Assembly: GCF_000025945.1 (NCBI RefSeq)
Contig: NC_006138.1
Coordinates: 510,001 to 542,000, forward strand
From: Desulfotalea psychrophila LSv54
Lineage (GTDB): Bacteria; Desulfobacterota; Desulfobulbia; Desulfobulbales; Desulfocapsaceae
DNA length: 32,000 bases
Reading direction: 5' to 3'
The notes under the pieces were generated by a model. The model searched no databases. It was not told where the DNA came from and saw only the letters and a list, made by a program, of their open reading frames with translations. How positions within the stretch are numbered: the stretch's first letter is position 1; every line of letters starts with the position of its first letter. Of this stretch, positions 499 to 14,752 are shown in pieces. Made by a program: the position numbers and the translations under genes.

Positions 499-2391
499 AT
501 GGCAAATATAATACCCATTGGTAGCATCCCGACAAAAGAGCAGATGCAAAGAGTTATCAGAGCATCGCATAAACGCTCAAGACAATATGGTGTTAATCAA
601 GAAACCCGTAATCTTGAGCAAAAAAGACTCTCTCCGGCAGAACTTGAAAAGAAGCAGGATGAAAACAAGGAACTGTTAGGTGCTATTGCCGCTACCATTA
701 ATGAATTTTATGACCTGATGTCTCCCGAGGAATTTCTGGTGGGTTTTGCCGATAGTGAGGGCTATATCCTCCATCTAGCTGGAGGAGACAGGGCAAGAGA
801 AACGTCAGCTGACCGTCAATTCTCCCTGGGCTACCGTTGGACGGAAAAAGATGTAGGCACCACGGCAACCAGCCTCTGCCTTCGGCTTAAAGTCTCTATT
901 CAGCTCAAGGGCAGGGATCATTACTGTAAACAGGCTCAGGGCCTCCTCAGCTCCGCAGCACCAATTTTCGGCCACCAGGGCGTTCTTCTGGGATCACTCT
1001 GCATTTTTGGCGACAAGAGCCTTATTCATCCCCACACGCTTATTATGATAACCTCGTCAGCACGCTCTATTGAGCGGCATATGAGGTTAATGCGCTGGAA
1101 TACAGAGCTGATAAGCAATGCGGGTTTTCTCGATAATGTCATAGAAGCTGCCGGAACGGGCCTACTGATAATTGACACAGACTTAATCGTTCAGAAGATC
1201 AACTATCAGGCTAAGAAAATCCTTAATGTCGATGATCTTAAGGGAAAGTCAATTTCATCCCTAAGTGGCCTCCAGCTCGATCTGGACAGCATCTTTGAAA
1301 ACCCCAGTGTATGGAAAAACAGAGAGTGCCACATCCAACATAATAAAAAAGATATTCACCTTGTCTACTCTGCCCAACCAGTACTGTCAAAGAACGACAA
1401 ACCCCTCGGGGCAGTCCTTAACATCACTAAATTTAGTAATATCAGAAAATTAATTGATAAGATCTCCGGCATTAAACCCTATTTTACCTTTGATTCCCTA
1501 ATAGGATCATCACCGGCCTTTACCAAGGCTGTTGATTTGGCAAAGCGTGCCTCTCACTCAGAGGCTACTGTACTTCTTCTGGGAGAGACAGGCACAGGCA
1601 AGGAACTATTTGCTCAGGCGATCCATAACGGCGCCAAGGGAGCGGACAAACCATTTGTGCCAATTAACTGCGGGGCTATACCCGGAGAGCTGCTTGAGAG
1701 CGAACTCTTTGGCTATGCCGAGGGTGCTTTTACCGGGGCTAAAAGAGGGGGGCGATCTGGAAAATTTATTTTGGCAAACGACGGAACCATGCTCCTCGAT
1801 GAGATTGGAGACATGCCACATGATATGCAGGTCAAGCTATTGCGCGTCCTGCAATCAAAGGTAGTCCAGCCAGTGGGGGCACGCAAGCCACTGCAAACCA
1901 ATGCAAGAATAATCGCCTCAACCCATGTTGACCTGGCAGAGGCTATGCTCCACAACCGATTCAGACGGGATCTCTACTATCGTTTGAATATACTGCAGAT
2001 TAAGATTCCTCCCCTGCGCGAAAGAGGAGAGGTAGATATCAAGGCTCTGGCCCACTATTTCCTGAGAAAAAATAATCCAGAGTTCCAATTTACTGCAGAT
2101 GCCATTGCCGGCCTGGTTGCATATCACTGGCCGGGTAATGTTCGGGAACTTGAAAACACCATCCAGCGAGCCCTGCATGTCTGCAAAGACCAAACAATAA
2201 CCGTCAAAGACCTTGGCCTTAGCAAACAAGACCTCAGCAAAAAAGCTGGCTTTCAAGGTACTTTGCTCGATATGGAAAAGAAGGTTATCGCTGAGACATT
2301 ACGTGAAACAAAATCTAATATGGCCGAGGCAGCGAGAAGACTGGGTATTTCGCGGGCAACACTTTACCGCAAGGTAAAACAGTTCTCCTAG
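499..2391 (+). CDS. Sigma-54-dependent Fis-family transcriptional activator (bEBP) with an AcoR-like N-terminal sensor region
   Basis: 630 aa. AAA+ sigma-54 interaction motifs are present: GETGTGKE (Walker A), ESELFGY and GAFTGA. The C-terminal Fis-type HTH reads AEAARRLGISRATLYRKVKQF. The N-terminus (QRVIRASHKRSRQYGV...) resembles AcoR-type sensor domains. Confidence 0.9.
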   Translation: MANIIPIGSIPTKEQMQRVIRASHKRSRQYGVNQETRNLEQKRLSPAELEKKQDENKELLGAIAATINEFYDLMSPEEFLVGFADSEGYILHLAGGDRARETSADRQFSLGYRWTEKDVGTTATSLCLRLKVSIQLKGRDHYCKQAQGLLSSAAPIFGHQGVLLGSLCIFGDKSLIHPHTLIMITSSARSIERHMRLMRWNTELISNAGFLDNVIEAAGTGLLIIDTDLIVQKINYQAKKILNVDDLKGKSISSLSGLQLDLDSIFENPSVWKNRECHIQHNKKDIHLVYSAQPVLSKNDKPLGAVLNITKFSNIRKLIDKISGIKPYFTFDSLIGSSPAFTKAVDLAKRASHSEATVLLLGETGTGKELFAQAIHNGAKGADKPFVPINCGAIPGELLESELFGYAEGAFTGAKRGGRSGKFILANDGTMLLDEIGDMPHDMQVKLLRVLQSKVVQPVGARKPLQTNARIIASTHVDLAEAMLHNRFRRDLYYRLNILQIKIPPLRERGEVDIKALAHYFLRKNNPEFQFTADAIAGLVAYHWPGNVRELENTIQRALHVCKDQTITVKDLGLSKQDLSKKAGFQGTLLDMEKKVIAETLRETKSNMAEAARRLGISRATLYRKVKQFS

Positions 2392-2440
2392 GCCCACCCC
2401 TGCAATCCCCCTATCATAGCAGAGAATGCCCAGCCTACTA

Positions 2441-2473
2441 CCCCAGCTACCTCTCATCAAGAAGTAGCCGGGG
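2441..2473. terminator. Hairpin H1 downstream of dctP-A, between convergent genes
   Basis: ccccagctac-N13-gtagccgggg forms a 10-bp stem with one G-U on the reverse-strand RNA. There is no clear U-tract. Homologous hairpins follow the other two dctP copies. Confidence 0.4.
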
Positions 2474-2491
2474 CAAGCGTGGGATTACCGC

Positions 2492-3490
2492 TTACTTGCT
2501 AACCTTATCGAGAACACTCTGTCCCCACTCTTTACCTACATCGTTAAGAATTACAGGCCAAACTGTAGTCTTTGCCTTCTTGGAAATAGCTCCAATCTCA
2601 GCATCGGTGATTGGAAGAATTACTGCACCGTAATCGGCAAGTTTCTTCTCGTTGGCTGCCTGATCTGCCTCAGCAACAGCCCAGCGTCGATCCTCAAATT
2701 TGCTTGCAGCATCCTGCACCTGCGCCTGTTCCTCGGCAGAGAGTTTATCAAAATCCTTCTGACTCATGATCAGGTACCACACCTCAAAATGGGTATTTGC
2801 AGGAAGATAATATTTGGTAACATCTCTAAATGAAGAGTAATAGCCCTCGGCCCCTGAACCAATTACACCATCAACAACACCAGTCTGGACAGCGGTGAAG
2901 GCATCGGAAAATGGAATTGGGGTACCAAGATAACCTGTCTCATCGGCAAGCAATTGGAAGGTCTTCATCGGTGGAACACGAAGCTTGAGCCCCTTAGGCG
3001 CATCTGGATTACCGTAGTTCTTCACCTCTTTATTAAAGGAGATACCACCAAAGTATACAGGCCAGGCAGCAAGCATATGAATGTTCTGCTCAGCATAGAG
3101 GCCTTCAACAACCTTACGCAGAGGTGCGCCTGCACCATAATTAGCCTGTGCCTGCTGCCAGTTCTCTACAATATAAGGGAAATAGATAAGTTGAAATCTC
3201 TTATCCGCTGCAGTAGATGGTGGCTGACAGGCAAAGGAGATCGCGCCAAGGCTGACTCGCTCCTGAACGATGGTGTAATCGCCCAGGGCACTGGCAGGAT
3301 AGATCTTTGTCTTTAACTTGCCACCGGAAGCCTCTTTCAAGGTATCTGAAAACCAATGCAAATCCTTATCAATTGCTGTTCCCTGGGGTCTTACGTGCGA
3401 AATCTTCATGGTTTTCGCCTGCACACTTCCTGCCAGCAGAGAGACACCAGCTAACAGAACGAGAGCACCGGTAATAAAACTTTTCTTCAT
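2492..3490 (-). CDS. TRAP transporter substrate-binding protein, DctP family (copy A)
   Basis: 332 aa with a signal peptide (MKKSFITGALVLLAGVSLLAGSVQA) and AAGGAG 7 nt upstream of the ATG. Paralogous to 6252-7250 and 13012-14010. Lies directly downstream of dctQ and dctM. Confidence 0.9.
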   Translation of the reverse strand: MKKSFITGALVLLAGVSLLAGSVQAKTMKISHVRPQGTAIDKDLHWFSDTLKEASGGKLKTKIYPASALGDYTIVQERVSLGAISFACQPPSTAADKRFQLIYFPYIVENWQQAQANYGAGAPLRKVVEGLYAEQNIHMLAAWPVYFGGISFNKEVKNYGNPDAPKGLKLRVPPMKTFQLLADETGYLGTPIPFSDAFTAVQTGVVDGVIGSGAEGYYSSFRDVTKYYLPANTHFEVWYLIMSQKDFDKLSAEEQAQVQDAASKFEDRRWAVAEADQAANEKKLADYGAVILPITDAEIGAISKKAKTTVWPVILNDVGKEWGQSVLDKVSK

Positions 3491-3517
3491 TTCTTACTCC
3501 TTAGAGAGATTTTTTAA

Positions 3518-4822
3518 TTAATAGCCGAAGAGTCTTGGAAAAAAGAGAGACAAATCTGGCCACAGGGAGGTCAAAAAGACTACCGGCACATAGGCAAAGA
3601 GAAGCAATACCATTGCCGGTCTAATAACTTCAGAAAACTGCCCCTTGCCTATTCGATCCCAAGGTAGAGGATAGATGCATAGGGTGGGGTTACCCCGCCC
3701 CATTCCCGTATTCACGCCCATGATCGCGGCAAACTGAACAGGAGAAACACCAATCGCCTCCATCAGGGGAAGGAGAAGGGGGGCTATAAGAATGATTGCT
3801 GTAATATCATTAACAATCATGCCAACGAAAAAGAGGAGAAAGTTGATGAGGATTAACAGTAAAACCTTATTTTCGGTGATAGAAAAAATTCCCGATACCA
3901 GGGCCTGAGGCACATCTTCCATAACAAAGATCTGACTGAGCATAAGACTGAAGACAATCATGATCATAATGGCACCAACAGCGGTGGCAGAACTCTTGGC
4001 AGCCTTGAGGAATGTCTCGACAGTCAAACCCTTATAAATCAAAAAGCCAACGGGAATAGCATAGATCACCGCAACAGCCGCGGCCTCGGTGGGAGTCATA
4101 ATGCCACCGTAGATACCACCAAGAATAATAAGTGGCATCATCAGGGCGGGAATTGCCCGGGATGTACAGCTGATACCTTCCTTAATAATCTCTTTTTTGG
4201 TAGCGGGAGGCTCAAGCTCCAGGGGAAAACTTCTGGCCATATACAGATTCACTGCTGAGAGAAGAACGGTAATGGCAATGCCTGGTCCCAGGGTTGCCAG
4301 GAAACAGGCAAGAATTGAGGTATCCGTTACCCAACCATAGATGATCATGGTAACACTGGGCGGGATGAGCAGACCAAGAACAGAGGAGTTTGAAACAAGG
4401 GCTGTGGCATATCCACGGGGGTAACCCTTGGCGGCCATGGCTGGAATCAACAGAGGACCCGTTGCCGCAACACCGGTCAGGCCACTTCCGGAAATTGCCC
4501 CAATAATAGCACAACTCACCGAGGCAACCACCCCAAGTCCACCCCGTATTCTACCTACAAATATATTTACAAAATCCAGCAAGCTGGCCGCAATACCACT
4601 CTCACTCATGATGGTACCAGCAAAGACAAAGAGAGGTATGCAGAGAAGAACTGGATTAGAAAGCTGTGAAAAGCCCCAGACCATGGTGCCTTCCATGGGA
4701 ATATCACCCAGGATAACCATGGACATCAGGGCACCACCAAAACAGTATGGTAGCGGAACGCCAAAACTGAGCAGGACCACAAGTGCGGCGAGGGCAATAA
4801 GAGAAATTGCTATGATTTCCAT
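3518..4822 (-). CDS. TRAP transporter large permease, DctM family (copy A), with an internal compensated frameshift
   Basis: 434 aa, polytopic and hydrophobic. Almost identical to copy B, except residues encoded at about 3652-3701 read GRGNPTLCIYPLPWD where copy B reads GGVTPPYASILYLGI. Confidence 0.85.
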   Translation of the reverse strand: MEIIAISLIALAALVVLLSFGVPLPYCFGGALMSMVILGDIPMEGTMVWGFSQLSNPVLLCIPLFVFAGTIMSESGIAASLLDFVNIFVGRIRGGLGVVASVSCAIIGAISGSGLTGVAATGPLLIPAMAAKGYPRGYATALVSNSSVLGLLIPPSVTMIIYGWVTDTSILACFLATLGPGIAITVLLSAVNLYMARSFPLELEPPATKKEIIKEGISCTSRAIPALMMPLIILGGIYGGIMTPTEAAAVAVIYAIPVGFLIYKGLTVETFLKAAKSSATAVGAIMIMIVFSLMLSQIFVMEDVPQALVSGIFSITENKVLLLILINFLLFFVGMIVNDITAIILIAPLLLPLMEAIGVSPVQFAAIMGVNTGMGRGNPTLCIYPLPWDRIGKGQFSEVIRPAMVLLLFAYVPVVFLTSLWPDLSLFFPRLFGY

Positions 4823-4826
4823 AATA

Positions 4827-5309
4827 CTAGGACTCCTTGGTGGGCTGCTGAAGAGCTATTAACTGTTTTGCATGTTTATACAGATAGCCCCCACAGTAGA
4901 CCGTCATAAGGGCAAGACCGATGAAGAGGGCACATTCAGCCCAAAACGTTGGTATGTACAGGGTAGGGCTTGATTTCCATACGCGCTTTGCATATACGAA
5001 ATAATCCCAGGCCCAGTAGGTGAGCCAGGAAGAAACTATGACGGAGGCAAGGTCCGCAATAACCCGAACAATCAATCGTGCTTTATCTGTCTTCAAAAAA
5101 ATATCAAGAACGTTTGCCTTGATCTGGCTATCCTCTCTTGCAGCATTAACAGCTCCCAAGATATAGAGCCACAGAGTGGGATAGACAAGCATCTCATCAA
5201 GTCCCATGCTGGGGAGTTCAAAAACATACCGCATCAGCACCTGATAAAATTCCATTACTGCGATCGTACTGATCAGTAAAGGCAGTGCATATTTAAAGAA
5301 CCTCTCCAT
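4827..5309 (-). CDS. TRAP transporter small permease, DctQ family (copy A)
   Basis: The track ORF starts at 5357. I prefer the ATG at 5309 (MERFFKYALPLL...) because AGGAGG precedes it and it matches the copy B start. Four hydrophobic segments. The stop lies 4 nt before the dctM ATG. Confidence 0.85.
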   Translation of the reverse strand: MERFFKYALPLLISTIAVMEFYQVLMRYVFELPSMGLDEMLVYPTLWLYILGAVNAAREDSQIKANVLDIFLKTDKARLIVRVIADLASVIVSSWLTYWAWDYFVYAKRVWKSSPTLYIPTFWAECALFIGLALMTVYCGGYLYKHAKQLIALQQPTKES

Positions 5310-5385
5310 CCTCTCCTCCTTTAAGCAAAATGATTTCAAGCAAAAGATAAAATCCATCTCTTCATTGAATTTTTTTAGGCAATAC

Positions 5386-5466
5386 CTATCTCACTACTGC
5401 AACTACTGAGATCTCAACAGGCAAATCTAGACAGGCCGTTCTGGCTTCAACACAGGTACGGGCAGG
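5386..5466 (-). pseudogene. Relic of the last 26 codons plus stop of the RidA-family gene (deletion scar in unit A)
   Basis: The reverse strand translates to PARTCVEARTACLDLPVEISVVAVVR*. The intact copy at 9147-9227 reads [26 protein letters not shown]. Nucleotide homology stops abruptly at 5466. Confidence 0.7.
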
Positions 5467-5561
5467 AAGAGGAGGATGATTTCGGTGAGTGATGCTACCT
5501 ACCATATCCGCTACCCTGCCAATCTGGCCATCGAGCTACAGCCTTATTATAAATTATAATA
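5467..5561 (-). pseudogene. Degenerate remnant of the 5' end of the FAD-dependent oxidoreductase gene (unit A)
   Basis: Patchy similarity by eye (ctgccaa..ggcca..tcgagc..tacagcc..ttattata) to 12271-12350 of unit B. From 5562 the sequence ttgctcatcccc... aligns cleanly with the unit B 5' UTR (12359 onward). The left boundary is uncertain. Confidence 0.35.
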
Positions 5562-5637
5562 TTGCTCATCCCCACGAGTCTAAACACCTATTGTCAGGGA
5601 AAAATCAATCTCAGGCAATCTCTATATATACCTAATA

Positions 5638-5653
5638 TGCTAATATCATGCCA
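5638..5653 (-). promoter_or_regulatory. Sigma-54 promoter of unit A
   Basis: The reverse complement is TGGCATGATATTAGCA, with GG/GC at canonical -24/-12 spacing. Positional homologue of the unit B and unit C promoters. Confidence 0.65.
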
Positions 5654-5828
5654 AGACAGATTAGTTTTATTTATTCTTATAATAATAACAATTTATATCT
5701 CACAGCGCAAACAAGTTAACCTATTGATATTTAATCATTATCAATGAATCATAAAAGCATTTTTGAGTTAAAGTACCCAGAACAAATAAAGCAGGAGGGG
5801 GAAAGAACGACGGCAAAACAGCCTCTCT

Positions 5829-5847
5829 ATGTTTCATTATGCAACAT
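5829..5847. promoter_or_regulatory. Upstream activator box 1, unit A (imperfect palindrome)
   Basis: atgtttcat-t-atgcaacat, one mismatch from a perfect palindrome, about 192 bp upstream of the promoter. Conserved box 2 (catgtgccattttgaga, 5914-5930) starts 76 bp beyond the palindrome centre. Confidence 0.5.
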
Positions 5848-6206
5848 GCTCTCTGCAATTCTGCACGTTTCCTTAGAGTGCTTAGTCCTGGAGAGGGGTG
5901 TCACAAAGTAGTACATGTGCCATTTTGAGAAAAAAAGAGTGGCACAGAGGAGAGGGTAGTAAATCTCAAATTTATAAAACCAGATATCCCTAGATCTCAA
6001 AATTCAACAATTTACAAAGACATAATGGTAAAGCCAAAAGCACAAGGAGGCCGAAGACGCTATTTCAACAAGAGGGAGGCAATGATCGTTAAGAATATAT
6101 AAGCCACTCTTCACAATCAAACAAAAAGAGGGGCAAAGCTACAGAGGTAAATTTTCTACGGAGACAGATATTGGAAAGACACATTTCGTGAGGAAGGGGG
6201 GGGGAA

Positions 6207-6238
6207 CCCCGGCCACCTCCTAACAAGAGGCAACCGGG
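6207..6238. terminator. Hairpin H2 downstream of dctP-B
   Basis: In ccccggccacctcctaacaagaggcaaccggg, cccgg pairs with ccggg and cctc with gagg, leaving an interior loop. Homologous to H1, H3 and H4. No U-tract. Confidence 0.35.
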
Positions 6239-6251
6239 AATCTAAACATGA

Positions 6252-7250
6252 TTATTTACGAATACTATCAAGAACGCCTTGTCCCCACGCCTCTCCTACA
6301 TCACCGAGAACTACAGGCCAAACAGCAGCCTTTGCCTTATTGGAAAGCGCCGTAATTTCCGCTTCACTGATTGGGAGAATTGTTGCACCGTAATCGGCAA
6401 GTCGCTTTTCATTGGCTGCCTGATCTGCCTCAGCAACAGCCCAACGTCGTTCCTCAAATTGAGTTGCAACATCCTGCAGTTGTTTTTTCTCCTCAGCAGA
6501 GAATTTATCAAATTGTTTCTGGCTGACAATCAGATACCAAACCTCAAAATGAGTATTTGCGGGAAGATAATATTTGGTAACATCTTTAAATGAAGAGTAG
6601 TAGCCTTCGGCCCCTGAACCAATTACACCATCAACAACACCAGTCTGCACGGCAGTAAAGGCATCGGAAAATGGGATAGGAGTGCCAAGGTAACCGCTGG
6701 TGTCTGCCAAAAGTTGGAGGGTTTTCATTGGTGGCACACGAAGCTTGAGCCCCTTAGCTACATCCGGATTACCGTAATCCTTCACCTCTTTATTAAAGGA
6801 AATGCCACCAAAGTATACAGGCCAGGCGGCGATCATATGAATGTCCTGCTCAGCATAGAGGCCTTCAACAACCTTACGCAGAGGGGCGCCTGGAGAGTAA
6901 TTATCCCGAGCCTGCTTCCAATTTTCTACCAGATAAGGGAAGTAGAGAATCTGGAATCTCTTATCCACGGCAGGAGATGGTGGTTGGCAGGCAAAGGAGA
7001 TCGCGCCAAGACTCACTCGCTCCTGAACGATGGTGTAATCGCCAAGGGCACTGGCAGGATAGATCTTCGACTTCAACTTGCCACCGGAGGCCTCTTTCAG
7101 GCTGTCTGAAAACCAGTGCAGATCCTTATCAATTGCTGTTCCCTGGGGTCTTACATGGGAAATTTTCATGCTTCTGGCCTGGACACTTCCTACCAGCAAA
7201 GAGACACCGGCAAAGAGAACCAATGCTCCAGTAATAAAACGTTTCTTCAT
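6252..7250 (-). CDS. TRAP transporter substrate-binding protein, DctP family (copy B)
   Basis: 332 aa with a signal peptide and AAGGAG upstream of the ATG. Last gene of the complete operon. Confidence 0.92.
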   Translation of the reverse strand: MKKRFITGALVLFAGVSLLVGSVQARSMKISHVRPQGTAIDKDLHWFSDSLKEASGGKLKSKIYPASALGDYTIVQERVSLGAISFACQPPSPAVDKRFQILYFPYLVENWKQARDNYSPGAPLRKVVEGLYAEQDIHMIAAWPVYFGGISFNKEVKDYGNPDVAKGLKLRVPPMKTLQLLADTSGYLGTPIPFSDAFTAVQTGVVDGVIGSGAEGYYSSFKDVTKYYLPANTHFEVWYLIVSQKQFDKFSAEEKKQLQDVATQFEERRWAVAEADQAANEKRLADYGATILPISEAEITALSNKAKAAVWPVVLGDVGEAWGQGVLDSIRK

Positions 7251-7277
7251 ATCTTACTCCTTAGAGTGAATTTTTAA

Positions 7278-8582
7278 TTAATAGCCAAAGAGTCTTGGGA
7301 AAAAGAGAGACAGATCTGGCCATAGAGAGGTTAAAAAGACAACCGGCACATAGGCAAAGAGAAGCAATACCATTGCTGGCCTGATAACCTCAGAAAACTG
7401 CACCTTGCCTATGCGGATACCGAGATAGAGGATAGATGCATAGGGTGGGGTTACACCGCCCATTGCCGTATTCACGCCCATGATCGCTGCAAACTGAACG
7501 GGAGAAACACCAATCGCCTCCATCAGAGGCAGGAGGAGGGGAGCGATAAGAATAATTGCCGTGATATCATTAACAATCATCCCAACAAAGAAGAGGAGGA
7601 AGTTGATCAGAATTAAGAGTAAGACCTTATTTTCGGTGATCGAAAAAATTCCCGATACCAGGGCCTGAGGTACATCTTCCATCACAAAGATCTGACTGAG
7701 CATAAGACTGAAGACAATCATGATCATGATGGCACCGACAGCGGTGGCAGAACTCTTAGCAGCCTTCAAAAATGTATCGACAGTCAGTCCCTTATATATC
7801 AGGAAGCCAACAGGAATCGCATAAATCACCGCAACGGCAGCAGCTTCAGTCGGGGTCATGATACCGCCGTAGATACCGCCAAGGATAATGAGCGGCATCA
7901 TCAGGGCTGGAATTGCCCGGGAGGTGCAGCTAATACCCTCTTTGATGATCTGCTTTTTGGTAGCGGGAGGCTCAAGCTCCAGAGGAAAACTTCTGGCCAT
8001 GTACAGATTCACCGCCGAGAGAAGAATGGTAATGGCAATACCAGGCCCCAGGGTTGCCAAAAAACAGGCAAGGATGGAGGTATCCGTCACCCAACCATAG
8101 ATAATCATGGTTACACTGGGCGGGATGAGTAGACCAAGAACAGAGGAGTTTGAGACAAGGGCGGTGGCATATCCACGGGGATAACCCTTGGCAGCCATGG
8201 CTGGAATCAACAGAGGCCCCGTTGCCGCAACACCGGTCAGTCCACTTCCGGAAATTGCCCCAATAATGGCACAACTCACCGAGGCAACAACCCCAAGTCC
8301 ACCCCGTATTCTACCTACAAATATATTTACAAAATCCAGCAGACTAGCGGCAATACCACTCTCACTCATGATGGTACCGGCAAAGACAAAGAGAGGTATG
8401 CAGAGAAGGACAGGATTAGAAAGCTGTGAAAAGCCCCAGACCATGGTGCCTTCCATGGGAATATCACCCAGGATAACCATGGACATCAGGGCGCCACCAA
8501 AACAGTATGGTAGCGGGACACCAAAACTGAGCAGGACAACAAGTGCCGCGAGGGCAATAAGAGAAATTGCTATGATTTCCAT
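7278..8582 (-). CDS. TRAP transporter large permease, DctM family (copy B, intact)
   Basis: The track ORF begins at a TTG (8618). The ATG at 8582 (MEIIAISL...) matches the copy A start and is preceded by AAGGAG. Contains the GGVTPPY segment expected in DctM permeases. Confidence 0.92.
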   Translation of the reverse strand: MEIIAISLIALAALVVLLSFGVPLPYCFGGALMSMVILGDIPMEGTMVWGFSQLSNPVLLCIPLFVFAGTIMSESGIAASLLDFVNIFVGRIRGGLGVVASVSCAIIGAISGSGLTGVAATGPLLIPAMAAKGYPRGYATALVSNSSVLGLLIPPSVTMIIYGWVTDTSILACFLATLGPGIAITILLSAVNLYMARSFPLELEPPATKKQIIKEGISCTSRAIPALMMPLIILGGIYGGIMTPTEAAAVAVIYAIPVGFLIYKGLTVDTFLKAAKSSATAVGAIMIMIVFSLMLSQIFVMEDVPQALVSGIFSITENKVLLLILINFLLFFVGMIVNDITAIILIAPLLLPLMEAIGVSPVQFAAIMGVNTAMGGVTPPYASILYLGIRIGKVQFSEVIRPAMVLLLFAYVPVVFLTSLWPDLSLFFPRLFGY

Positions 8583-8586
8583 AATA

Positions 8587-9069
8587 CTAGGACTCCTTGG
8601 TGGGCTGCTGAAGAGCAATTAGCTGCTTTGCATGTTTATACAGATAGCCCCCGCAGTAGACCGTCATAAAGGCAAGACCGATAAACAGGGCACATTCAGC
8701 CCAAAACGTTGGTATGTACAGGGTAGGACTTGACTTCCATACGCGCTTTGCATATACGAAATAATCCCAGGCCCAGTAGGTGAGCCAGGAAGAAATTATC
8801 ACGGAAGCAACATCCGCAAAGACACGGACAATCAATCGTGCTTTATCTGTCTTCAAAAAAATATCAAGAACGTTTGCCTTGATTTGGCTATCTTCTCTTG
8901 CGGCATTAACACTGCCCAAGATATAGAGCCATAGGGTGGGATAGACGAGCAGTTCATCAAGTCCCATGCTGGGGAGTTCAAAAACATATCTCATAAGCAC
9001 TTGGTAAAACTCCATTACTGCTATCGTAGTGATAAGTAAGGGCAGTGCATATTTAAAGAATCTCTCCAT
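8587..9069 (-). CDS. TRAP transporter small permease, DctQ family (copy B)
   Basis: The track ORF starts at a TTG (9084). The ATG at 9069 (MERFFKY...) is preceded by AAGGAG. Very similar to copy A. Confidence 0.88.
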   Translation of the reverse strand: MERFFKYALPLLITTIAVMEFYQVLMRYVFELPSMGLDELLVYPTLWLYILGSVNAAREDSQIKANVLDIFLKTDKARLIVRVFADVASVIISSWLTYWAWDYFVYAKRVWKSSPTLYIPTFWAECALFIGLAFMTVYCGGYLYKHAKQLIALQQPTKES

Positions 9070-9080
9070 ACTCTTCTCCT

Positions 9081-9137
9081 TCAATCGATAATAATTTCGA
9101 TTGAGAAATGAGATCCATCTCTCAATCGAATTTTTTA
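9081..9137. promoter_or_regulatory. Intercistronic three-arm repeat able to form mutually exclusive hairpins (between the RidA gene and dctQ)
   Basis: The arms are a1 tcaatcga (9081-9088), a2 ttcgattgaga (9096-9106) and a3 tctcaatcgaa (9120-9130). a2 pairs with a3 over 11 bp or with a1 over 8 bp. On the mRNA the a1 arm abuts the dctQ SD. The + strand reads as hairpin plus TTTTTT (9131-9136). Confidence 0.45.
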
Positions 9138-9146
9138 ATGCTGTAC

Positions 9147-9506
9147 CTATCTCACTGCTGCAATCACAGAAACCTCGACAAGCAAATCTGGACGAGCCAT
9201 TCTAGCCTCAACACAGGCACGGGCAGGTGCCTGTCCTTCTGGCACCCAGCTATCCCAAACGCTGTTCATCCCTGCAAAGTCCTTCATATCCCGCACGTAA
9301 ATGGTCGCAGAAAGGATTAAGTCTCTGCCGCTGCCCGCCTGCTCAAGAAGAGCATCAACCCGGGCAAGCATGGTTTCAGTTTGCTCAGTGATAGTGCTTG
9401 GTACATCTACCACACCACCAACCTGACCACAGAGATATACGGTGTTATTATGAATTACTATCTTGCTCATTCGCTGAGCTGTTTCCATTCGAGTAATCTC
9501 GCTCAT
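9147..9506 (-). CDS. RidA (YjgF/YER057c/UK114) family enamine/imine deaminase-like protein
   Basis: The track ORF starts at a TTG (9512). The ATG at 9506 has GAGAGG upstream. Family-typical sequence: ...VYLCGQVG...[19 protein letters not shown]...ATIYVRDM...PARACVEA... Confidence 0.88.
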
Positions 9507-9523
9507 TTTCAATTCCTCTCTAG

Positions 9524-10954
9524 CTATTTTTTACTTTGATTTTTAAACAGGGCCGACGGATCGACGCCTTCTACCACGATATCCATTGCAGCCACTTCCT
9601 GAAGAGGCAGCGGTTTAAGAGGTGGACGTATTTTCAGCAATCCAGCGTTCGGCACGGATCCATCCAGTTCTGCCGCAACAATTTCACCCAAGGCCTGTCC
9701 GCACATTCTGCCCTGACAGGGTCCCATTCCACATCTGGTGATGGCCTTTACCTCATTGAGATCAGTCACACCCTCAGAGACAAGCTTGCGTACCTTACCC
9801 ACCGTAATATTCTCACAACGACAGAGGACGGTCTCATCCTCAAAGGATATTTTATTCGGATTAGGGGCAAAAAAGGCATCGATCAGAGGACGAGGATAAG
9901 CGTCCTTCTTGATATTCTCCAAAGGCTGCGCGGCCAGGTTATCACGCTCATAAGGAGGAATGATACCAAGACAGCGGGCAACTTCCAGGGCCGACAACTC
10001 ACCCTTGAACTCAGCAGCCAAAGCACCGGAAACGCCTGTACCATCACCGGTTGCAAAGATTCGCTCAAAGTTGGTGCGTCCCCAACTATCCGTTGCCGGA
10101 TACCAGTAACGCTGCTCCTTCTGCCACTCCATATGACAGCCAGTAAGGCGATGAATATGGGTGTCAGGAACAACACCGAAATGAACAAGGAGCATCTCAG
10201 CATCAAATTTCAACTTTTTACGACCATGGTCCGCTGTCACGGTCGTGACGGCATCATCACCGATGGCCTTAAGATTTGTTATGTTCTTATAGTGGGGGAC
10301 ACCTGACTTCTTGATATCCCAGAGCATCTTCACGCCCTTGAGAAGGAAGGGAATGCCGCCCATGGCCTTGGGCAGATGTTGCAAAATTGAGGGAGAGGGA
10401 ATTGCCGCTGTTGTCTCAAGAATTGCCGCAACCTTAACCTTTTTCTGGGTGAGCAGGGCTGCCTCGAGTAAAAGCAAGGGACCACTTCCTGCCAGAACAA
10501 CGCTTCCGGACGGGGTAAGATCAGCATCTTTAGCAAGACCATTTACAGCACCGGCACCCATTACACCGGGCAGGGTCCAGCCAGGAAATGGTACAGGACG
10601 CTCCATGGCACCGGTAGCGATAATGACATAGTTTGCAGTTATACGCTCTGACACACCGGCACGTGAATAGCAGACCCGACCTTCAGATTCCACATTCCAC
10701 ACCAGAGAACTCCCCTCATACTCAGCACCACTCTTTCTAAATCGTTGGGCAAGATCAAGTCCACGGCGATACTCAGGACCCATCTTCTTCAGATTACTAT
10801 CCGATGCATGCTCTATATTGCGATAGATCTGCCCACCAATGTGGTTTTGCTCATCAAGGGTCAATACCTTCAGGCCCATTTCGGCAAGGGTTGAGCTTGC
10901 TGTAAGTCCAGCAGCCCCCGCACCGATCACAATTGTATCATAATGACGACTCAT
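9524..10954 (-). CDS. FAD/NAD(P)-binding oxidoreductase, large subunit of an HcnB/OoxA/opine-dehydrogenase alpha type, with a BFD-like [2Fe-2S] motif
   Basis: 476 aa. N-terminal dinucleotide fold [12 protein letters not shown]. Internal [12 protein letters not shown]...[15 protein letters not shown] matches the BFD-like 2Fe-2S pattern. GGGGAGG SD upstream. Confidence 0.85.
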
Positions 10955-10956
10955 GA

Positions 10957-11244
10957 CTATTTTTCCTCCCCGGCTGCAAGGTTACGATTAACGACCATTC
11001 CCTTACGAACGGTGGTCATACAGGCCTGACGCTGGACACCATCAATTTCCATCAAACACTCAAAACAGACGCCCATTAAACAGTGAGGCGAACAGGGTTT
11101 TTTAGAGGTGGGAGAAACCTTTGAGGTTATCTCGCCAATTGCGAGCAGGGCAGCGGCCAGATTCACCTCTGCGGGAACAGAAGTGGCTTGCCCGTCCAAG
11201 ATTATTTCTACTGAATCCGATACTGATGAGTCGCGTTTAAACAT
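10957..11244 (-). CDS. Small (2Fe-2S)-binding subunit (HcnA / opine-dehydrogenase gamma-like)
   Basis: About 95 aa from the ATG at 11244, which overlaps the upstream stop as ATGTTTAA. An alternative ATG lies at 11256. Cys cluster: KKPCSPHCLMGVCFECLMEIDGVQRQAC. The longer track ORF runs into the upstream gene. Confidence 0.8.
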   Translation of the reverse strand: MFKRDSSVSDSVEIILDGQATSVPAEVNLAAALLAIGEITSKVSPTSKKPCSPHCLMGVCFECLMEIDGVQRQACMTTVRKGMVVNRNLAAGEEK

Positions 11245-12358
11245 TGAATCGTCCATTGCTGAAGTGTGAAATTTGTGGGGCCTCGGCTTTTTCAAGTATC
11301 CAGGGAGCGACATGCGTCGCTGACACAGGAGCAAGGCTTACAGCGGAGTGACCTGCCAACACATAGATGTTTTTATGCTCGGTAAGTCTGTCATATATAG
11401 GGCTTCCATCGGGGGTCATTACTCTGGCTGCCCCCCAACCTCTTACCCAGTTAACCTTGCCAAGTTCAGGGAAGAGCTTTATGGCTCCAGCCGCCTGATT
11501 CTTCATGGCCTCGGTGGTAACCTCAGAGTTATGACCGAAATCCTCGGTGGAGAGACCAATAAGAAAGGTGCCGTCAAGGGTCTGACGAACAGCCAATGTG
11601 GGAAAGTCGAGCTTCTTCTCTATCCGCTCACTGACCATAATCTGTCCGCGGGTAGGATAGACATTGAGATGATAATCAAGATCTTCCAGCAAACGTGAAG
11701 AACCATGACCGGCAGCTATGACCAACTTGCTGCACTGATAGTCACCCTTCGAGGTCTTTACCGTTACTGTACCGTCTCCATTAGGTACAACCCTTGTCAC
11801 AATCATGCCGCCATAATAAACACCACCCTTTTTCTGAAAGGCAGCCCTCATTGCAGCCATAGCACCCATGGGGTTTACGGTGCCCTGATCAGCAGAATAC
11901 ATGGCGCCGACAACCTCATCGCCGAGCTTCATCTTGGGAACCATGGAGGCAAATTCTTCCCGATCCACCATTCTGGCAGGGTAATCCATCCCCGCATCGC
12001 TACAGACCTTTTTCAGATTGGCAACGGCATCGCTGTACATCTGAAACTGCGCACCACTGGTTGCATGCAGGGCACCGCCATTCCACTCAAGCTCAACATC
12101 ATAGCCAGTTTCCTCTTCCAGCTTAGCAGCAAATTCCGGCCATAAAGTGGTCGCCATCCGACACCACTTGGCATAATTCGGGTTATTTGCTCCCTTGCAC
12201 ATAAACCAGGTTAAACCAAAATTACCTCGAGAGAGTCTCTGGGTTGGCAGCTGTTCATCGAACATTAGAACCTTGCCAGCTCCCTCACGGACAAGGCCAA
12301 GTGCTGTCGATGCACCCTGTAGCCCACCACCAATAACGATTATATCAACTTTCTTCAC
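11237..12358 (-). CDS. FAD-dependent oxidoreductase (DAO family; HcnC/OoxB/opine-dehydrogenase beta-like)
   Basis: 373 aa with a GTG start at 12358 and GGAGA upstream. N-terminal Rossmann motif VDIIVIGGGLQGAS. First gene after the sigma-54 promoter. Confidence 0.88.
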   Translation of the reverse strand: MKKVDIIVIGGGLQGASTALGLVREGAGKVLMFDEQLPTQRLSRGNFGLTWFMCKGANNPNYAKWCRMATTLWPEFAAKLEEETGYDVELEWNGGALHATSGAQFQMYSDAVANLKKVCSDAGMDYPARMVDREEFASMVPKMKLGDEVVGAMYSADQGTVNPMGAMAAMRAAFQKKGGVYYGGMIVTRVVPNGDGTVTVKTSKGDYQCSKLVIAAGHGSSRLLEDLDYHLNVYPTRGQIMVSERIEKKLDFPTLAVRQTLDGTFLIGLSTEDFGHNSEVTTEAMKNQAAGAIKLFPELGKVNWVRGWGAARVMTPDGSPIYDRLTEHKNIYVLAGHSAVSLAPVSATHVAPWILEKAEAPQISHFSNGRFNV

Positions 12359-12435
12359 TTGCTCATCTCCATCAGTCTAAGCACCTGTTGTTGGGGAAAA
12401 ATTCAATTACGACTAATCTTACCACGTATACTTAA

Positions 12436-12451
12436 TGCTAATTCTATGCCA
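12436..12451 (-). promoter_or_regulatory. Sigma-54 promoter of unit B
   Basis: The reverse complement is TGGCATAGAATTAGCA, with GG/GC at canonical spacing, about 78 nt upstream of the GTG at 12358. Confidence 0.7.
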
Positions 12452-12626
12452 GATTTAATTAATTTTTATTGATCTTCATAATAACAAGAAGTTAAGCATT
12501 GAGACGAAGACAAGACAATGCACTGAAATCACTCCACTTGTCCAGAAACAAGCAGAAATATGGTAAGATTATAGTCTTTAAGAAATGAGGCCCAGAAATG
12601 CAGGGAAAAAATAAAAAAACAGCCAT

Positions 12627-12651
12627 ATTATGTTTCATAATGAAACATAAT
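12627..12651. promoter_or_regulatory. Upstream activator box 1, unit B: perfect 25-nt palindrome
   Basis: attatgtttcat-a-atgaaacataat has 12-nt arms and a TGT-N11-ACA core, about 195 bp upstream of the -24/-12 element. That is typical bEBP geometry. Confidence 0.6.
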
Positions 12652-12704
12652 TCATGTTATTCGGCGCTTTTCTTTGAAGTGATTGCTCTTAAGAAGAGAT
12701 GGTA

Positions 12705-12730
12705 CAAAATGAAGCATGTGTCATTTTGAG
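12705..12730. promoter_or_regulatory. Upstream box 2, unit B
   Basis: caaaatga-N8-tcattttg is an inverted repeat. The right half (catgtgtcattttgag) is conserved in units A and C, starting exactly 76 bp from the centre of box 1 in all three. Confidence 0.45.
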
Positions 12731-12963
12731 AAATAGACGATTCGTAAAAAAAGAAGCCCATAAGCCACAGAATAGATAAGAAAATGATGACCACAACACC
12801 CATAGGCCATGGACCTTTCAGGAAAAGCAAACAGTCTCTCCCGGCAACGAGAGGACTGACACCCCAAGGCTGTGCCAATTATTCTCCAAAATCAAATTAA
12901 AAAAGAGATAGAGGAAAATTTCAGCCAGGCACAGAGCATTAAGAAAACTCTGCCCAGAGCCCT

Positions 12964-12996
12964 CCCCGGCCACTTCTCATCAAAAAATAGCCGGGG
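12964..12996. terminator. Hairpin H3 downstream of dctP-C
   Basis: ccccggc-N19-gccgggg. Homologous to H1. Confidence 0.4.
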
Positions 12997-13011
12997 AACT
13001 TCTAGTCGTGA

Positions 13012-14010
13012 TTATTTGGTAACCCGATCAAGAACGCCCTGCCCCCACTCCTGGCCCACGTCGCGAAGAATCACAGGCCAAACGGCAGACTTGGCCCTAT
13101 CCGAAAGCGCCGCAATTTCCGCCTTACTAATGGGGAGAATTACTGCACCGTAATCGGCAAGTTTCTTCTCGTTGGCTGCCTGATCTGCCTCAGCAACAGT
13201 CCAACGTCGTTCTTCAAATTGAGTTGCAACATTCTGCACCTGCCCTTGCTCTTCAACAGAGAGTTTATCAAAATCTTTCTGACTCATGATAAGATACCAC
13301 ACCTCAAAATGGGTGTTGGCAGGAAGATAATACTTGGTAACATCTCTAAATGAAGAATAATAGCCCTCGGCTCCTGAGCCAATTACACCATCAACAACAC
13401 CGGTCTGCACAGCGGTGAAGGCATCGGAAAATGGAATTGGCGTGCCAAGATAACCGCTGGTGTCTGCCAGCAATTGAAAGGTTTTCATTGGCTGAACACG
13501 AACCTTGAGCCCCTTGGACACATCCGGATTCCCGTAATCCTTCACCTCTTTGTTAAAAGAGATACCACCAAAGTAGACGGGCCAGGCGGCAATCATATGA
13601 ATGTTCTGCTCAGCATAGAGACCTTCAACAACCTTACGCAGAGGTGCGCCGGGACCATAATTATCCCGTGCCTGCCTCCAATTTTCTACGATATAAGGAA
13701 AATAGATAAGCTGGAATCTTTTATCCGCCGCAGTAGACGGTGGTTGACAGGCAAAGGAAATCGCGCCCAGGCTGACCCGCTCCTGAACAATGGTATAATC
13801 GCCAAGGGCATTGGCAGGATAAATCTTCGTTTTCAACTTGCCAGCCGAAGCCTCCTTCAGGGTATCTGAAAACCAGTGGAGATCCTTATCAATTGCTGTT
13901 CCCTGAGGTCTCACATGTGAAATTTTCATGGCTCTCGCCTGGATGCTTCCTGCCAACATAGAGACACTGGCAAGCAGAACCAGGGCACTGATAACAAAAT
14001 GTTTCTTCAC
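13012..14010 (-). CDS. TRAP transporter substrate-binding protein, DctP family (copy C, orphan)
   Basis: 332 aa. It starts at GTG in the position where A and B have ATG, with the same AAGGAG at the same spacing. Signal peptide present. No adjacent dctQ or dctM. Confidence 0.88.
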   Translation of the reverse strand: MKKHFVISALVLLASVSMLAGSIQARAMKISHVRPQGTAIDKDLHWFSDTLKEASAGKLKTKIYPANALGDYTIVQERVSLGAISFACQPPSTAADKRFQLIYFPYIVENWRQARDNYGPGAPLRKVVEGLYAEQNIHMIAAWPVYFGGISFNKEVKDYGNPDVSKGLKVRVQPMKTFQLLADTSGYLGTPIPFSDAFTAVQTGVVDGVIGSGAEGYYSSFRDVTKYYLPANTHFEVWYLIMSQKDFDKLSVEEQGQVQNVATQFEERRWTVAEADQAANEKKLADYGAVILPISKAEIAALSDRAKSAVWPVILRDVGQEWGQGVLDRVTK

Positions 14011-14037
14011 TTCTTACTCCTTAGATAACGTTCTTAA

Positions 14038-14130
14038 TTAATAGCAAAAAATCTTGCAAAAAGAGAGACAAACCCAACCAAAGGGAGGCAAGTCGTACCC
14101 TCAAAGACGAGCTTGTACCAAAGAGCAAAA
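14038..14130 (-). pseudogene. Relic of the dctM 3' end (about the last 30 codons) in unit C
   Basis: ttaattaatagcaaaaaatcttgcaaaaagagagaca... aligns with ttaattaatagccaaagagtcttgggaaaaagagagaca... at 7274 onward, with many substitutions. Confidence 0.6.
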
Positions 14131-14210
14131 CCTTGCCAGCACCTCACAGACATGAGCGATCGATGCACCCGCAGCCCGCCAGCAACAACGGCTATATCAC
14201 CTCCCCCCAC
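14131..14210 (-). pseudogene. Relic of the FAD-dependent oxidoreductase 5' end in unit C
   Basis: ccttgccagcacctcacaga...cgatgcaccc.cagccc.cc...tatatca...cacctgctcatctcc aligns with 12271-12370 of unit B. The former GTG maps to 14208-14210. Confidence 0.6.
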
Positions 14211-14281
14211 CTGCTCATCTCCGCCAAACAAAATTTTTACTGTTAGGGATAAAACAATTACGGCCCACGCAACCACCTCTA

Positions 14282-14297
14282 TGCCAGTTCCATGCCA
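14282..14297 (-). promoter_or_regulatory. Sigma-54 promoter of unit C
   Basis: The reverse complement is TGGCATGGAACTGGCA, with GG/GC at canonical spacing. Confidence 0.6.
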
Positions 14298-14416
14298 ACC
14301 TGAATTAACTTCACCAATACCTCACAAGAGCAAGAAGTTAGCGCCTTCCGCAGAAAAAGCAAACAGGACAATTTCTTGATATAATTATAAAAAGATCTAA
14401 AGAAATCCCATTCACC

Positions 14417-14433
14417 TGTTTTATTATGAGACA
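14417..14433. promoter_or_regulatory. Upstream activator box 1, unit C (degenerate palindrome)
   Basis: tgttttat-t-atgagaca, about 135 bp upstream of the promoter. Box 2 (catgtctcattttaagaa, 14501-14518) keeps the 76-bp offset. Confidence 0.45.
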
Positions 14434-14595
14434 CAGATTGGCCAATTCACTCTTTTTCTTTAGAGCCAGTACTTACGAAGAGAAACGCTACGAAATGCAA
14501 CATGTCTCATTTTAAGAATTAACTGATTCGTAAAAAGGAGCCTTAAAGTCGCAGGAGCCCGTGATGGACATCGTTTACCAAAGAGCCCTACAGAG

Positions 14596-14622
14596 GCCAG
14601 CCTCCTCAACAAGAGAGCTGGC
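14596..14622. repeat. Hairpin H4, extra copy of the post-dctP hairpin at the distal end of the array
   Basis: gccagcctcctcaacaagagagctggc resembles H2 (ccacctcctaacaagaggcaacc). No dctP homology follows it. Confidence 0.35.
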
Positions 14623-14752
14623 AAAGGGCAGAGAGTGAAATATCCCACTTTCATAAAGGCTGGACGGCAAACAGAGAAAAATGTAGGCTAGCCCATGGTA
14701 ATGGGCTTAAGCTGAGCAAAAAATAACTATAGGCATATAGCAGAAAATCATT

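Follow-up and report, generated by a model that had tools for sequence, protein, structure and literature searches.

A tandem array of three TRAP transporter units in Desulfotalea psychrophila and its probable origin from a single sigma-54 operon

Layout and gene content of the array

We analyzed a 32-kb window of the chromosome of Desulfotalea psychrophila LSv54 (NC_006138.1, positions 510,001 to 542,000; coordinates below are those of the window), in which an earlier note had described a sigma-54 operon for a tripartite ATP-independent periplasmic (TRAP) transporter, repeated three times in tandem. The region 2441-14622 was found to consist of three collinear units on the minus strand: unit A (2441-6206, 3766 bp), unit B (6207-12963, 6757 bp) and unit C (12964-~14595, ~1632 bp), in agreement with the positions and sizes (3.8, 6.75 and 1.65 kb) read previously. 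Self-comparison by BLASTN matched A 2506-5466 with B 6266-9227 (88% identity), A 2441-3570 with C 12964-14088 (84%) and B 6207-7330 with C 12964-14088 (83%). Promoters, leaders and the 5' end of the first gene were connected across the units by weaker blocks. A 3' hairpin, a dctP gene for the substrate-binding protein, a -24/-12 promoter and an upstream region with activator boxes are common to all three. The protein-coding genes of the units are as follows.

Unit B (Pfam; the four enzyme-module genes also NCBIfam)
6252-7250, minus strand: dctP_B, substrate-binding protein
7278-8582, minus strand: dctM_B, large permease subunit
8587-9069, minus strand: dctQ_B, small permease subunit
9147-9512, minus strand: ridA
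9524-10954, minus strand: oxA, alpha subunit with Pyr_redox_2 and BFD, also SO_alpha_A3
10957-~11256, minus strand: gamma subunit, Fer2_4, 2Fe-2S
11237-12358, minus strand: beta subunit, DAO-family flavoprotein, GTG start

Unit A
2492-3490, minus strand: dctP_A, intact TRAP substrate-binding protein, 332 aa (Pfam DctP, 1e-40)
3518-4822, minus strand: dctM_A, large permease subunit with a compensated double frameshift (Pfam DctM, 6e-78)
4827-5309, minus strand: dctQ_A, small permease subunit, start MERFFKY (Pfam DctQ, 8e-21)

Unit C
13012-14010, minus strand: dctP_C, intact orphan TRAP substrate-binding protein, 332 aa (Pfam DctP, 5e-36)

The full set DAO-Fer2_4-Pyr_redox_2/BFD-RidA-DctQ-DctM-DctP was detected by Pfam only in unit B, which carries all seven genes that the earlier note had assigned to it. 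The same note had each copy decayed in a different way; unit B shows no decay. Unit A retains DctQ, DctM and DctP, and unit C only DctP. The three TRAP components (PF03480, PF04290 and PF06808) exceeded their curated cut-offs in units A and B, and DctP alone did so in unit C. As deposited, dctP is the only gene that is intact in all three units. The predicted DctP_A and DctP_C proteins are each identical (DctP_C at 100%) to a D. psychrophila protein, and dctP_C begins with GTG behind an AAGGAG Shine-Dalgarno sequence.

No transposase or integrase was found in the window by Pfam scan, as had been noted before, and the remainder is ordinary chromosome. An Rfam scan of 2300-14800 at E <= 0.1 returned zero RNA families, hence no known riboswitch or leader. 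The unit copies differ from each other by 12-17% in nucleotides, which excludes collapse or expansion during assembly. Diverging from unit C lies a gene with SprT-like, DUF2786 and DUF7168 domains (14753-15850, plus strand). This combination is common on plasmids and on integrative or mobile elements; no other mobile-element genes are close by.

Promoters, activator sites and hairpins

Promoters were located by motif scan and activator boxes by palindrome scan, except for box 2 of unit C, which was placed by eye.

5637-5653, minus strand: putative sigma-54 -24/-12 promoter of unit A, TGGCATGATATTAGCAT
12435-12451, minus strand: putative sigma-54 -24/-12 promoter of unit B, TGGCATAGAATTAGCAT; the DAO start follows 77-93 nt downstream
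14281-14297, minus strand: putative sigma-54 -24/-12 promoter of unit C, TGGCATGGAACTGGCAT
5830-5846 and 5916-5932, minus strand: candidate activator boxes 1 and 2 of unit A, homologous to B 12616-12733
12631-12647 (perfect palindrome) and 12717-12733, minus strand: candidate activator boxes 1 and 2 of unit B
14417-14433 and near 14503-14519, minus strand: candidate activator box 1 and degenerate box 2 of unit C
499-2391, plus strand: sigma-54 enhancer-binding protein, 630 aa, convergent with unit A (Sigma54_activat 2e-64, AAA_lid_14, HTH_8 4e-12)

The window contains exactly three matches to TGGCAT-N5-TnGCAT (n = A or G), one in each unit and all on the minus strand. Leader and promoter of unit A are homologous to B 12359-12494 (71% identity). 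Note that a general scan for promoter-like and terminator-like sites gave counts equal to shuffle expectation. The palindrome TGTnTCA-N3-TGAnACA, with up to 2 mismatches, was matched six times against 1.08 expected. Five matches lie inside the units, as boxes 1 and 2 of A and B and box 1 of C, with a box 1-box 2 spacing of 86 bp; box 1 stands ~135-190 bp and box 2 ~220-280 bp upstream of the promoter. Box 2 of unit C has 3 mismatches, and its surroundings align with those of unit B (B 12688-12750 = C 14472-14536, 78%). With -24/-12 elements, a cognate enhancer-binding protein and upstream sites all predicted, the operon fits the sigma-54 type, and the protein encoded at 499-2391 is likely the common activator of the three promoters.

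The sixth palindrome, TGTATCAAAGTTATACA, is found at 447-463 on the plus strand, 36 bp upstream of the activator start at 499 and within an 89-aa open reading frame (222-491) that matches no Pfam family. In one related locus described below (L011), a matching palindrome at 19398-19414 precedes the activator gene by ~150 bp. The site at 447-463 suggests that the activator may be autoregulated.

Hairpins were identified at the 3' ends of the units and upstream of unit C.

2441-2473, minus strand: hairpin H1 (family D10), 3' end of unit A; -29.6 kcal/mol, z -6.6 (plus strand -17.3)
6207-6239, minus strand: hairpin H2, 3' end of unit B; -25.8 kcal/mol, z -4.6 (antisense -16.0)
12964-12996, minus strand: hairpin H3, 3' end of unit C; -25.6 kcal/mol, z -6.1 (antisense -15.7)
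14596-14622, minus strand: H4, weak hairpin upstream of unit C; -17.7 vs -15.2 kcal/mol, no strand asymmetry

H1-H3 are homologous to one another (family D10) and each lies 3' of a dctP. Their sense-strand RNA is 10-12 kcal/mol more stable than that of the opposite strand because several of the pairs are G-U, and with the far stronger sense-strand fold they resemble 3' elements acting at the RNA level. Canonical intrinsic terminators they are not: a U tract is missing, and for this reason an intrinsic-terminator scan called none of H1-H4. A search with the hairpin consensus found no further copies in the window, hence no sign there of a dispersed REP-like family.

The earlier note had taken homologous hairpins to mark every unit border, with H4 as an extra copy past the last unit. 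This holds for H1-H3 and is only marginal for H4. The best match of H4 in the 18-kb region is H2 (19/21 positions; 0/2000 in targeted and 7/200 in region-wide controls), and H4 and H3 have the flank AGGGCTCT in common. Alternatively, the spacer of unit C including H4 is collinear with an internal part of the unit A spacer at 6152-6034, an alignment that 28 of 1000 shuffles equalled. The spacers of A and B could not be aligned to each other (112 of 1000 shuffles as good). H4 may be either a decayed copy of the border hairpin or a spacer element, and the hairpin is a possible substrate for recombination.

Single-copy relatives, deletion scars and paralogues

To the earlier proposal that related genomes be compared for a single-copy ancestral state, the answer was uniform. 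A scan of species-representative genomes yielded 14 related loci (L001-L014) from Desulfocapsaceae and other Desulfobulbales, and 14/14 carry a single DAO-fer-oxA-ridA-dctQ-dctM-dctP copy in the same order. Ten of the 14 loci have a convergent orthologue of the enhancer-binding protein downstream of the operon. In L007 this gene is upstream instead, and the sequences of L001, L004 and L009 stop short of it. A sigma-54 promoter precedes DAO in 13 of the 14, and in the three closest relatives (L001-L003) it is placed at -92/-93, the same distance as in unit B. Palindromes occur upstream of DAO also in L002, L003, L005, L006, L010 and L014, and a GC-rich hairpin after dctP is present in relatives too. 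Since single-copy relatives carry them, the promoter, boxes and hairpin belong to the ancestral unit. The loci of Desulfosediminicola flagellatus and Desulfopila sp. IMCC35008 resemble the array in gene order, convergent activator, promoter position, palindromes and post-dctP hairpin. In contrast to D. psychrophila, the Desulfocapsaceae loci have one unit only, and in most of them a distant additional binding-protein gene, dctP2 (~40% identity), lies between dctP and the activator gene (L002, for example at 16262-17161, L003, L005, L006, L008-L011 and L014). An orthologue of dctP2 is absent from the window. Having two or more binding proteins for each permease is therefore a recurrent state of this locus, reached in different ways.

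We consider it very probable that one sigma-54 operon was amplified in situ to three tandem copies, two of which were then trimmed. Units A and C contain scars with remnants of the missing genes.

5386-5466, minus strand: ridA 3' relic of unit A, comprising the stop and the 26 codons before it (end of the A-B BLASTN block, 5466 = B 9227)
5500-5569, minus strand: junction of unit A, ATGAGCAA microhomology (5569-5562) followed by a decayed ridA 5' relic (alignment)
14034-14210, minus strand: composite scar of unit C, three collinear relics (alignment against unit B)
14034-14088, minus strand: dctM tail, ~18 codons (score 50; 0/300 shuffles)
14091-14119, minus strand: oxA relic, 29 nt (= B 9794-9764; 25/29 identical; codons ~387-397)
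14129-14210, minus strand: DAO codons 1-~30 with a 1-nt deletion (score 60; 0/300; BLASTN E = 1.6e-10)

In unit B, the 9-nt motif ATGAGCAAG occurs twice, at 12366 in the DAO leader, between the ribosome-binding site and the GTG start, and at 9470 in ridA codons 13-15. In unit A it occurs once, at 5569, and its flanks match the leader on one side and ridA on the other. From there, A 5569-5500 aligns collinearly with ridA 9470-9417 (score 35; 0/300 shuffles against the whole of unit B). One copy at each parental breakpoint and a single copy at the junction is the pattern of a microhomology-mediated deletion. Because ATGAGCAAG is alone in A and doubled in B, and the ridA alignment is collinear, we read the main event in unit A as a microhomology-mediated deletion of ~2.9 kb, with loss of the three dehydrogenase genes and of ridA codons 1-12. 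The remaining ridA 5' relic covers codons 13-~30, has an in-frame stop after 24 codons and is missing another ~140 nt through internal deletions. The earlier note had the loss in unit A run from the first codons of the oxidoreductase to the last 26 codons of RidA. The RidA tail is indeed present; retained oxidoreductase codons were not detectable in the 95 nt between leader homology and ridA tail, where 950 of 1000 shuffles scored at least as high.

Unit C had been described as the oxidoreductase 5' end joined directly to the last ~30 codons of dctM, with dctP as the only gene left. Both end pieces and the sole intact dctP were recovered, the dctM tail being ~18 codons long; the join is not direct. 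The 40-nt gap between the two pieces holds the 29-nt oxA relic, a match that 1/1000 Markov sequences and 1/1000 random genomic 40-mers equalled when both strands of unit B were searched (the junctions in unit C are not base-resolved). The DAO, oxA and dctM relics are collinear and on one strand, which implies at least two deletions. Together, the relics form one open chimeric frame of 58 codons. Its start is the former GTG of DAO, with the ribosome-binding site still in front; it then reads each of the oxA and dctM relics in its native frame and ends at the dctM stop, 24 nt before dctP_C. The open frame may be a coincidence, or it may carry translation onward to dctP_C.

These scars also bear on whether the truncated units arose directly by segmental duplication or template switching, rather than by full triplication and later deletion. 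A single switch at the ATGAGCAAG microhomology could form the main junction of unit A in one step, and the order of events cannot be dated independently. Such an origin is nevertheless improbable: the three collinear relics of unit C require a longer intermediate and at least two deletions, the ridA relic of unit A has undergone further internal deletions, and each unit has a complete spacer, boxes, promoter, leader and hairpin, as whole-unit copies predict.

We analyzed the DctP paralogues for their relationship and for selection. A homology search with DctP_C among 5.8 billion proteins returned the two paralogues at 87% and 85% identity and the best outside protein at 78%; the interval from 78% to 85% was empty, meaning that a closer relative is not among the proteins sampled. 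In neighbour-joining trees with 12 orthologues, the three copies were monophyletic in 300/300 bootstrap replicates, and the order within the clade was not settled (BC 145, AC 150, AB 5). Synonymous divergence (dS) was similar for the three pairs (0.58, 0.61 and 0.62), with a ratio of nonsynonymous to synonymous divergence (dN/dS) of 0.12-0.16 overall and of 0.12-0.14 for comparisons involving dctP_C, indicating that all three copies are under purifying selection. The three copies have eight derived residues in common (G80S, D85S, M86F, S93x, V102x, M107x, L139M and A303S), each at a position with >=95% conservation in 116 orthologues. They cluster at 80-107, and these changes may record altered contacts with ligand or partner throughout the lineage, before the triplication. 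The similar dS values, the monophyly and the common derived residues fit a burst-like, lineage-specific triplication followed by long retention of dctP.

The dctQ_A and dctQ_B genes differ by a dN of 0.022 and a dS of 0.38. One part of the A-B alignment is less diverged than the rest:

4373-5009 (= 8133-8769 in B), minus strand: tract of low A-B synonymous divergence, dctQ 3' half and dctM codons 1-150

Here dS is 0.15-0.25 compared to 0.5-1.2 elsewhere, a ~threefold lower divergence, at 93-98% nucleotide identity. The tract is probably a gene conversion of ~0.6 kb between A and B.

In contrast to its binding protein, the permease of unit A is disrupted in the sequence as deposited. A +1 insertion of G near 3701 and a -1 deletion near 3655 rewrite 16-17 residues of dctM_A. 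The Na2-site motif AMGGVTPPYASILYLGI, which is invariant in dctM_B (G375, T378, P379-P380) and in seven aligned orthologues, is changed to GMGRGNPTLCIYPLPWD in dctM_A, the deposited sequence giving GMGRGNPTL there. The rewritten segment aligns to G366, T369, P370-P371 and M372 of PpSiaM (Photobacterium SiaM), which form the Na2 site and the twin-proline motif; the T369A mutation in PpSiaM cuts transport to ~3% (PMC9971032). Outside the frameshifted tract, dN of dctM_A is ~0-0.02, and between the two indels 4/4 substitutions are synonymous in the original frame. For this last reason the frameshift pair is either very recent damage or two sequencing errors in the deposited genome.

Might units A and C then be non-functional leftovers, with unit B alone at work? 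The double frameshift through an essential motif, the survival of ridA, DAO and oxA in A and C as relics only, and the degenerate box 2 of unit C would be expected of decaying copies. Neutral decay is at odds, however, with the dN/dS of 0.12-0.16 of dctP_A and dctP_C over a dS of ~0.6, their full-length frames and their good ribosome-binding sites. The relics and spacers beside them have drifted to ~74% identity or beyond alignment, unlike dctP; every unit has an almost perfect -24/-12 element and box 1; and the damage to dctM_A, with its low dN outside the tract, is very recent or artefactual. We therefore regard this explanation as unlikely.

An assembly artefact, or horizontal gain of extra TRAP genes beside the operon, is effectively refuted. 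Tandem repeats are a classic source of assembly error, and the SprT-like/DUF2786/DUF7168 neighbour is of a type common on mobile elements. Against both stand the 12-17% nucleotide difference between the copies, the position of the DctP copies as mutual closest relatives (300/300) with common derived substitutions, the relics of the operon's own genes in the scars, and the lack of a transposase or integrase.

Proposed history, present working and parallels

The amplification in situ and subsequent trimming can be laid out as a series of steps. The ancestral operon would have comprised a spacer, two palindromes, a -24/-12 promoter, a leader, the genes for DAO, the 2Fe-2S protein and the FAD/BFD protein, ridA, dctQ, dctM and dctP, and an RNA hairpin, and would have adjoined its convergent activator gene. 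The whole unit would then have been copied to three tandem copies in a short burst, and non-homologous deletions would have stripped the co-amplified genes from the outer copies. In unit A these would be the 2.9-kb deletion between the ATGAGCAAG copies and then the smaller deletions within the ridA relic. Unit C would have lost the segment from DAO codon ~30 to oxA codon ~387, and then that from oxA codon ~397 to the last ~18 dctM codons. Later, conversion between A and B would have covered the ~0.6 kb of dctQ-dctM, and finally dctM_A would have gained the +1/-1 frameshift pair across the Na2-site motif, unless these are sequencing errors. The earlier note had likewise proposed endogenous amplification followed by reductive sorting, which the single-copy relatives, the monophyly and the operon relics in the scars now bear out. 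The tandem paralogy, the single-copy ancestor, the monophyly, the relics and junctions, the purifying selection and the conservation of promoters and palindromes are shown by the locus and its relatives; that the units are co-regulated, that dosage brings a benefit, that DctP_C uses DctQM_B and which class the substrate belongs to are what we infer beyond them.

At present, one activator would bind the palindromes of all three promoters and turn on three transcripts together: dctP_C alone, the full operon of unit B and dctQMP of unit A. Each transcript would be ended or stabilised by its sense-strand hairpin. The net result would be additional periplasmic binding protein, made from three genes, that supplies either one or two DctQM permeases and a single set of dehydrogenase and RidA. 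The earlier tally of one enzyme set, two permease sets and three binding proteins stands for the enzymes and binding proteins; the second permease set is doubtful in view of the double frameshift in dctM_A.

As dctP, with its promoter, sites and hairpin, is alone kept intact in all units, we tentatively suggest that the array may be a fossil of selection for more binding protein, in which three co-regulated DctP proteins would feed a single DctQM. Unit C appears to be already trimmed to dctP and its control parts, and unit A seems to be heading the same way, having a ridA relic and a dctM_A that is disabled as deposited. If this is true, the array would encode a multi-receptor TRAP system, possibly adapting substrate capture to permanently cold, nutrient-poor sediment.

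It is also possible, if doubtful, that the three DctP proteins have diverged in function and bind different, related ligands, widening the substrate range of one permease/enzyme set. The paralogues are 13-16% different and have long been kept under purifying selection (dS ~0.6). DctP_A and DctP_B have GLKLRVP at residue 170, the Arg of which we take to be the carboxylate-binding residue equivalent to SiaP R147; DctP_C differs here only by P173Q directly after the Arg, and DctP_B carries S93P/A95V. Most relatives, moreover, pair the permease with dctP plus the ~40% identical dctP2, and a duplicated beta subunit with common partners, OdhB1/B2, is documented (PMC4575208). Divergence in function is opposed by the small number of copy-specific changes at conserved positions (0-5 per copy, mostly conservative), by symmetric rates (72%, 72% and 70% mean identity to orthologues) and by the same promoter and activator sites in all units, that is, no regulatory divergence.

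Several points weigh against a burst of amplification followed by selection for binding-protein dosage. The equidistance of the copies could partly reflect gene conversion and not a burst. As to how the first duplication came about, the homology of H4 to the border hairpins is marginal and the spacers are too diverged to align. With only one Desulfotalea genome, no intermediate states are seen. The three promoters, the pairing of activator and palindromes and the function of the hairpins are predictions from sequence. Without U tracts or terminator calls, read-through from C to B to A is possible, and the 13-16% amino-acid divergence among the DctP proteins could mean diverged specificity and not dosage.

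The genes, the type of regulation and the evolutionary process are all known, and the array is a new instance and not a new kind of system. No description of it was found in the searchable literature, a scope that did not include the D. psychrophila genome paper. Remodelling of amplicons by removal of unneeded co-amplified genes is an established idea (PMC12107188; also PMC6941894). As in innovation-amplification-divergence during laboratory evolution of E. coli and Salmonella, a multi-gene segment was amplified in tandem, co-amplified genes were deleted and paralogues diverged. In contrast to the laboratory cases, the Desulfotalea array is old, fixed and natural (dS ~0.6) and has three copies only; each trimmed copy keeps its own sigma-54 promoter and sites, and the selected function is a matter of interpretation. 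The array is thus an unusually legible natural record of an amplified operon being pared down, in which a base-resolved microhomology junction, collinear relics of stepwise deletion and a gene-conversion tract are visible within 12 kb. The cis-regulatory modules travel with the copies, so that every trimmed copy would stay in the original regulon.

Several ABC binding proteins serving few membrane components are familiar from HisJ/ArgT with HisQMP. Orphan binding proteins of the TTT family (Bug/TctC) have been reviewed (PMC5812351). Like these systems, the array has more binding-protein genes than permease sets, one of them without adjacent membrane genes. Unlike the Bug/TctC orphans, DctP_C has a visible origin as a trimmed operon copy with relics, and the permease that it probably uses is encoded in the same tandem array, behind a promoter of the same type. 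Whether several TRAP binding proteins share one permease can be tested on this array.

The enzyme module of unit B has counterparts in the characterised alpha/beta/gamma dehydrogenases. The order beta-gamma-alpha is the same in OpnDH (OdhABC), D-HypDH and HcnABC, in which the published [2Fe-2S] motifs are C-x4-C-x2-C-x11~12-C for gamma and C-x-C-x15~20-C-x4-C for alpha (PMC4575208). Unit B agrees with them in the FAD motifs of beta and alpha (ADP-binding GxGxxG: GGGLQG at beta residue 10 and GAGAAG at alpha residue 11) and in the gamma motif (C-x4-C-x2-C-x11-C, residue 85). It differs in the spacing of the alpha Cys motif (C378-x-C380-x27-C408-x4-C413), where x27 falls outside the published x15-20, and in its attached ridA gene, and sequence similarity to the characterised members is low. 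Searches against solved structures gave glycine oxidase as the nearest relative of the beta subunit (1e-21) and 4n8g as that of DctP (1e-19), and no match for alpha that provides a usable relative. Because these relatives are remote, no substrate is assigned. The substrate would be a carboxylate, probably an amino or imino acid, as RidA would suggest an imine product.

Finally, the ridA-dctQ spacer of unit B (9096-9130, minus strand) contains a strong 16-bp hairpin followed by an A/T-rich tail, which separates the enzyme from the transporter genes and is partly retained in unit A (~5345-5385). Through this hairpin, mRNA levels could differ between the enzyme half and the transporter half of the operon.

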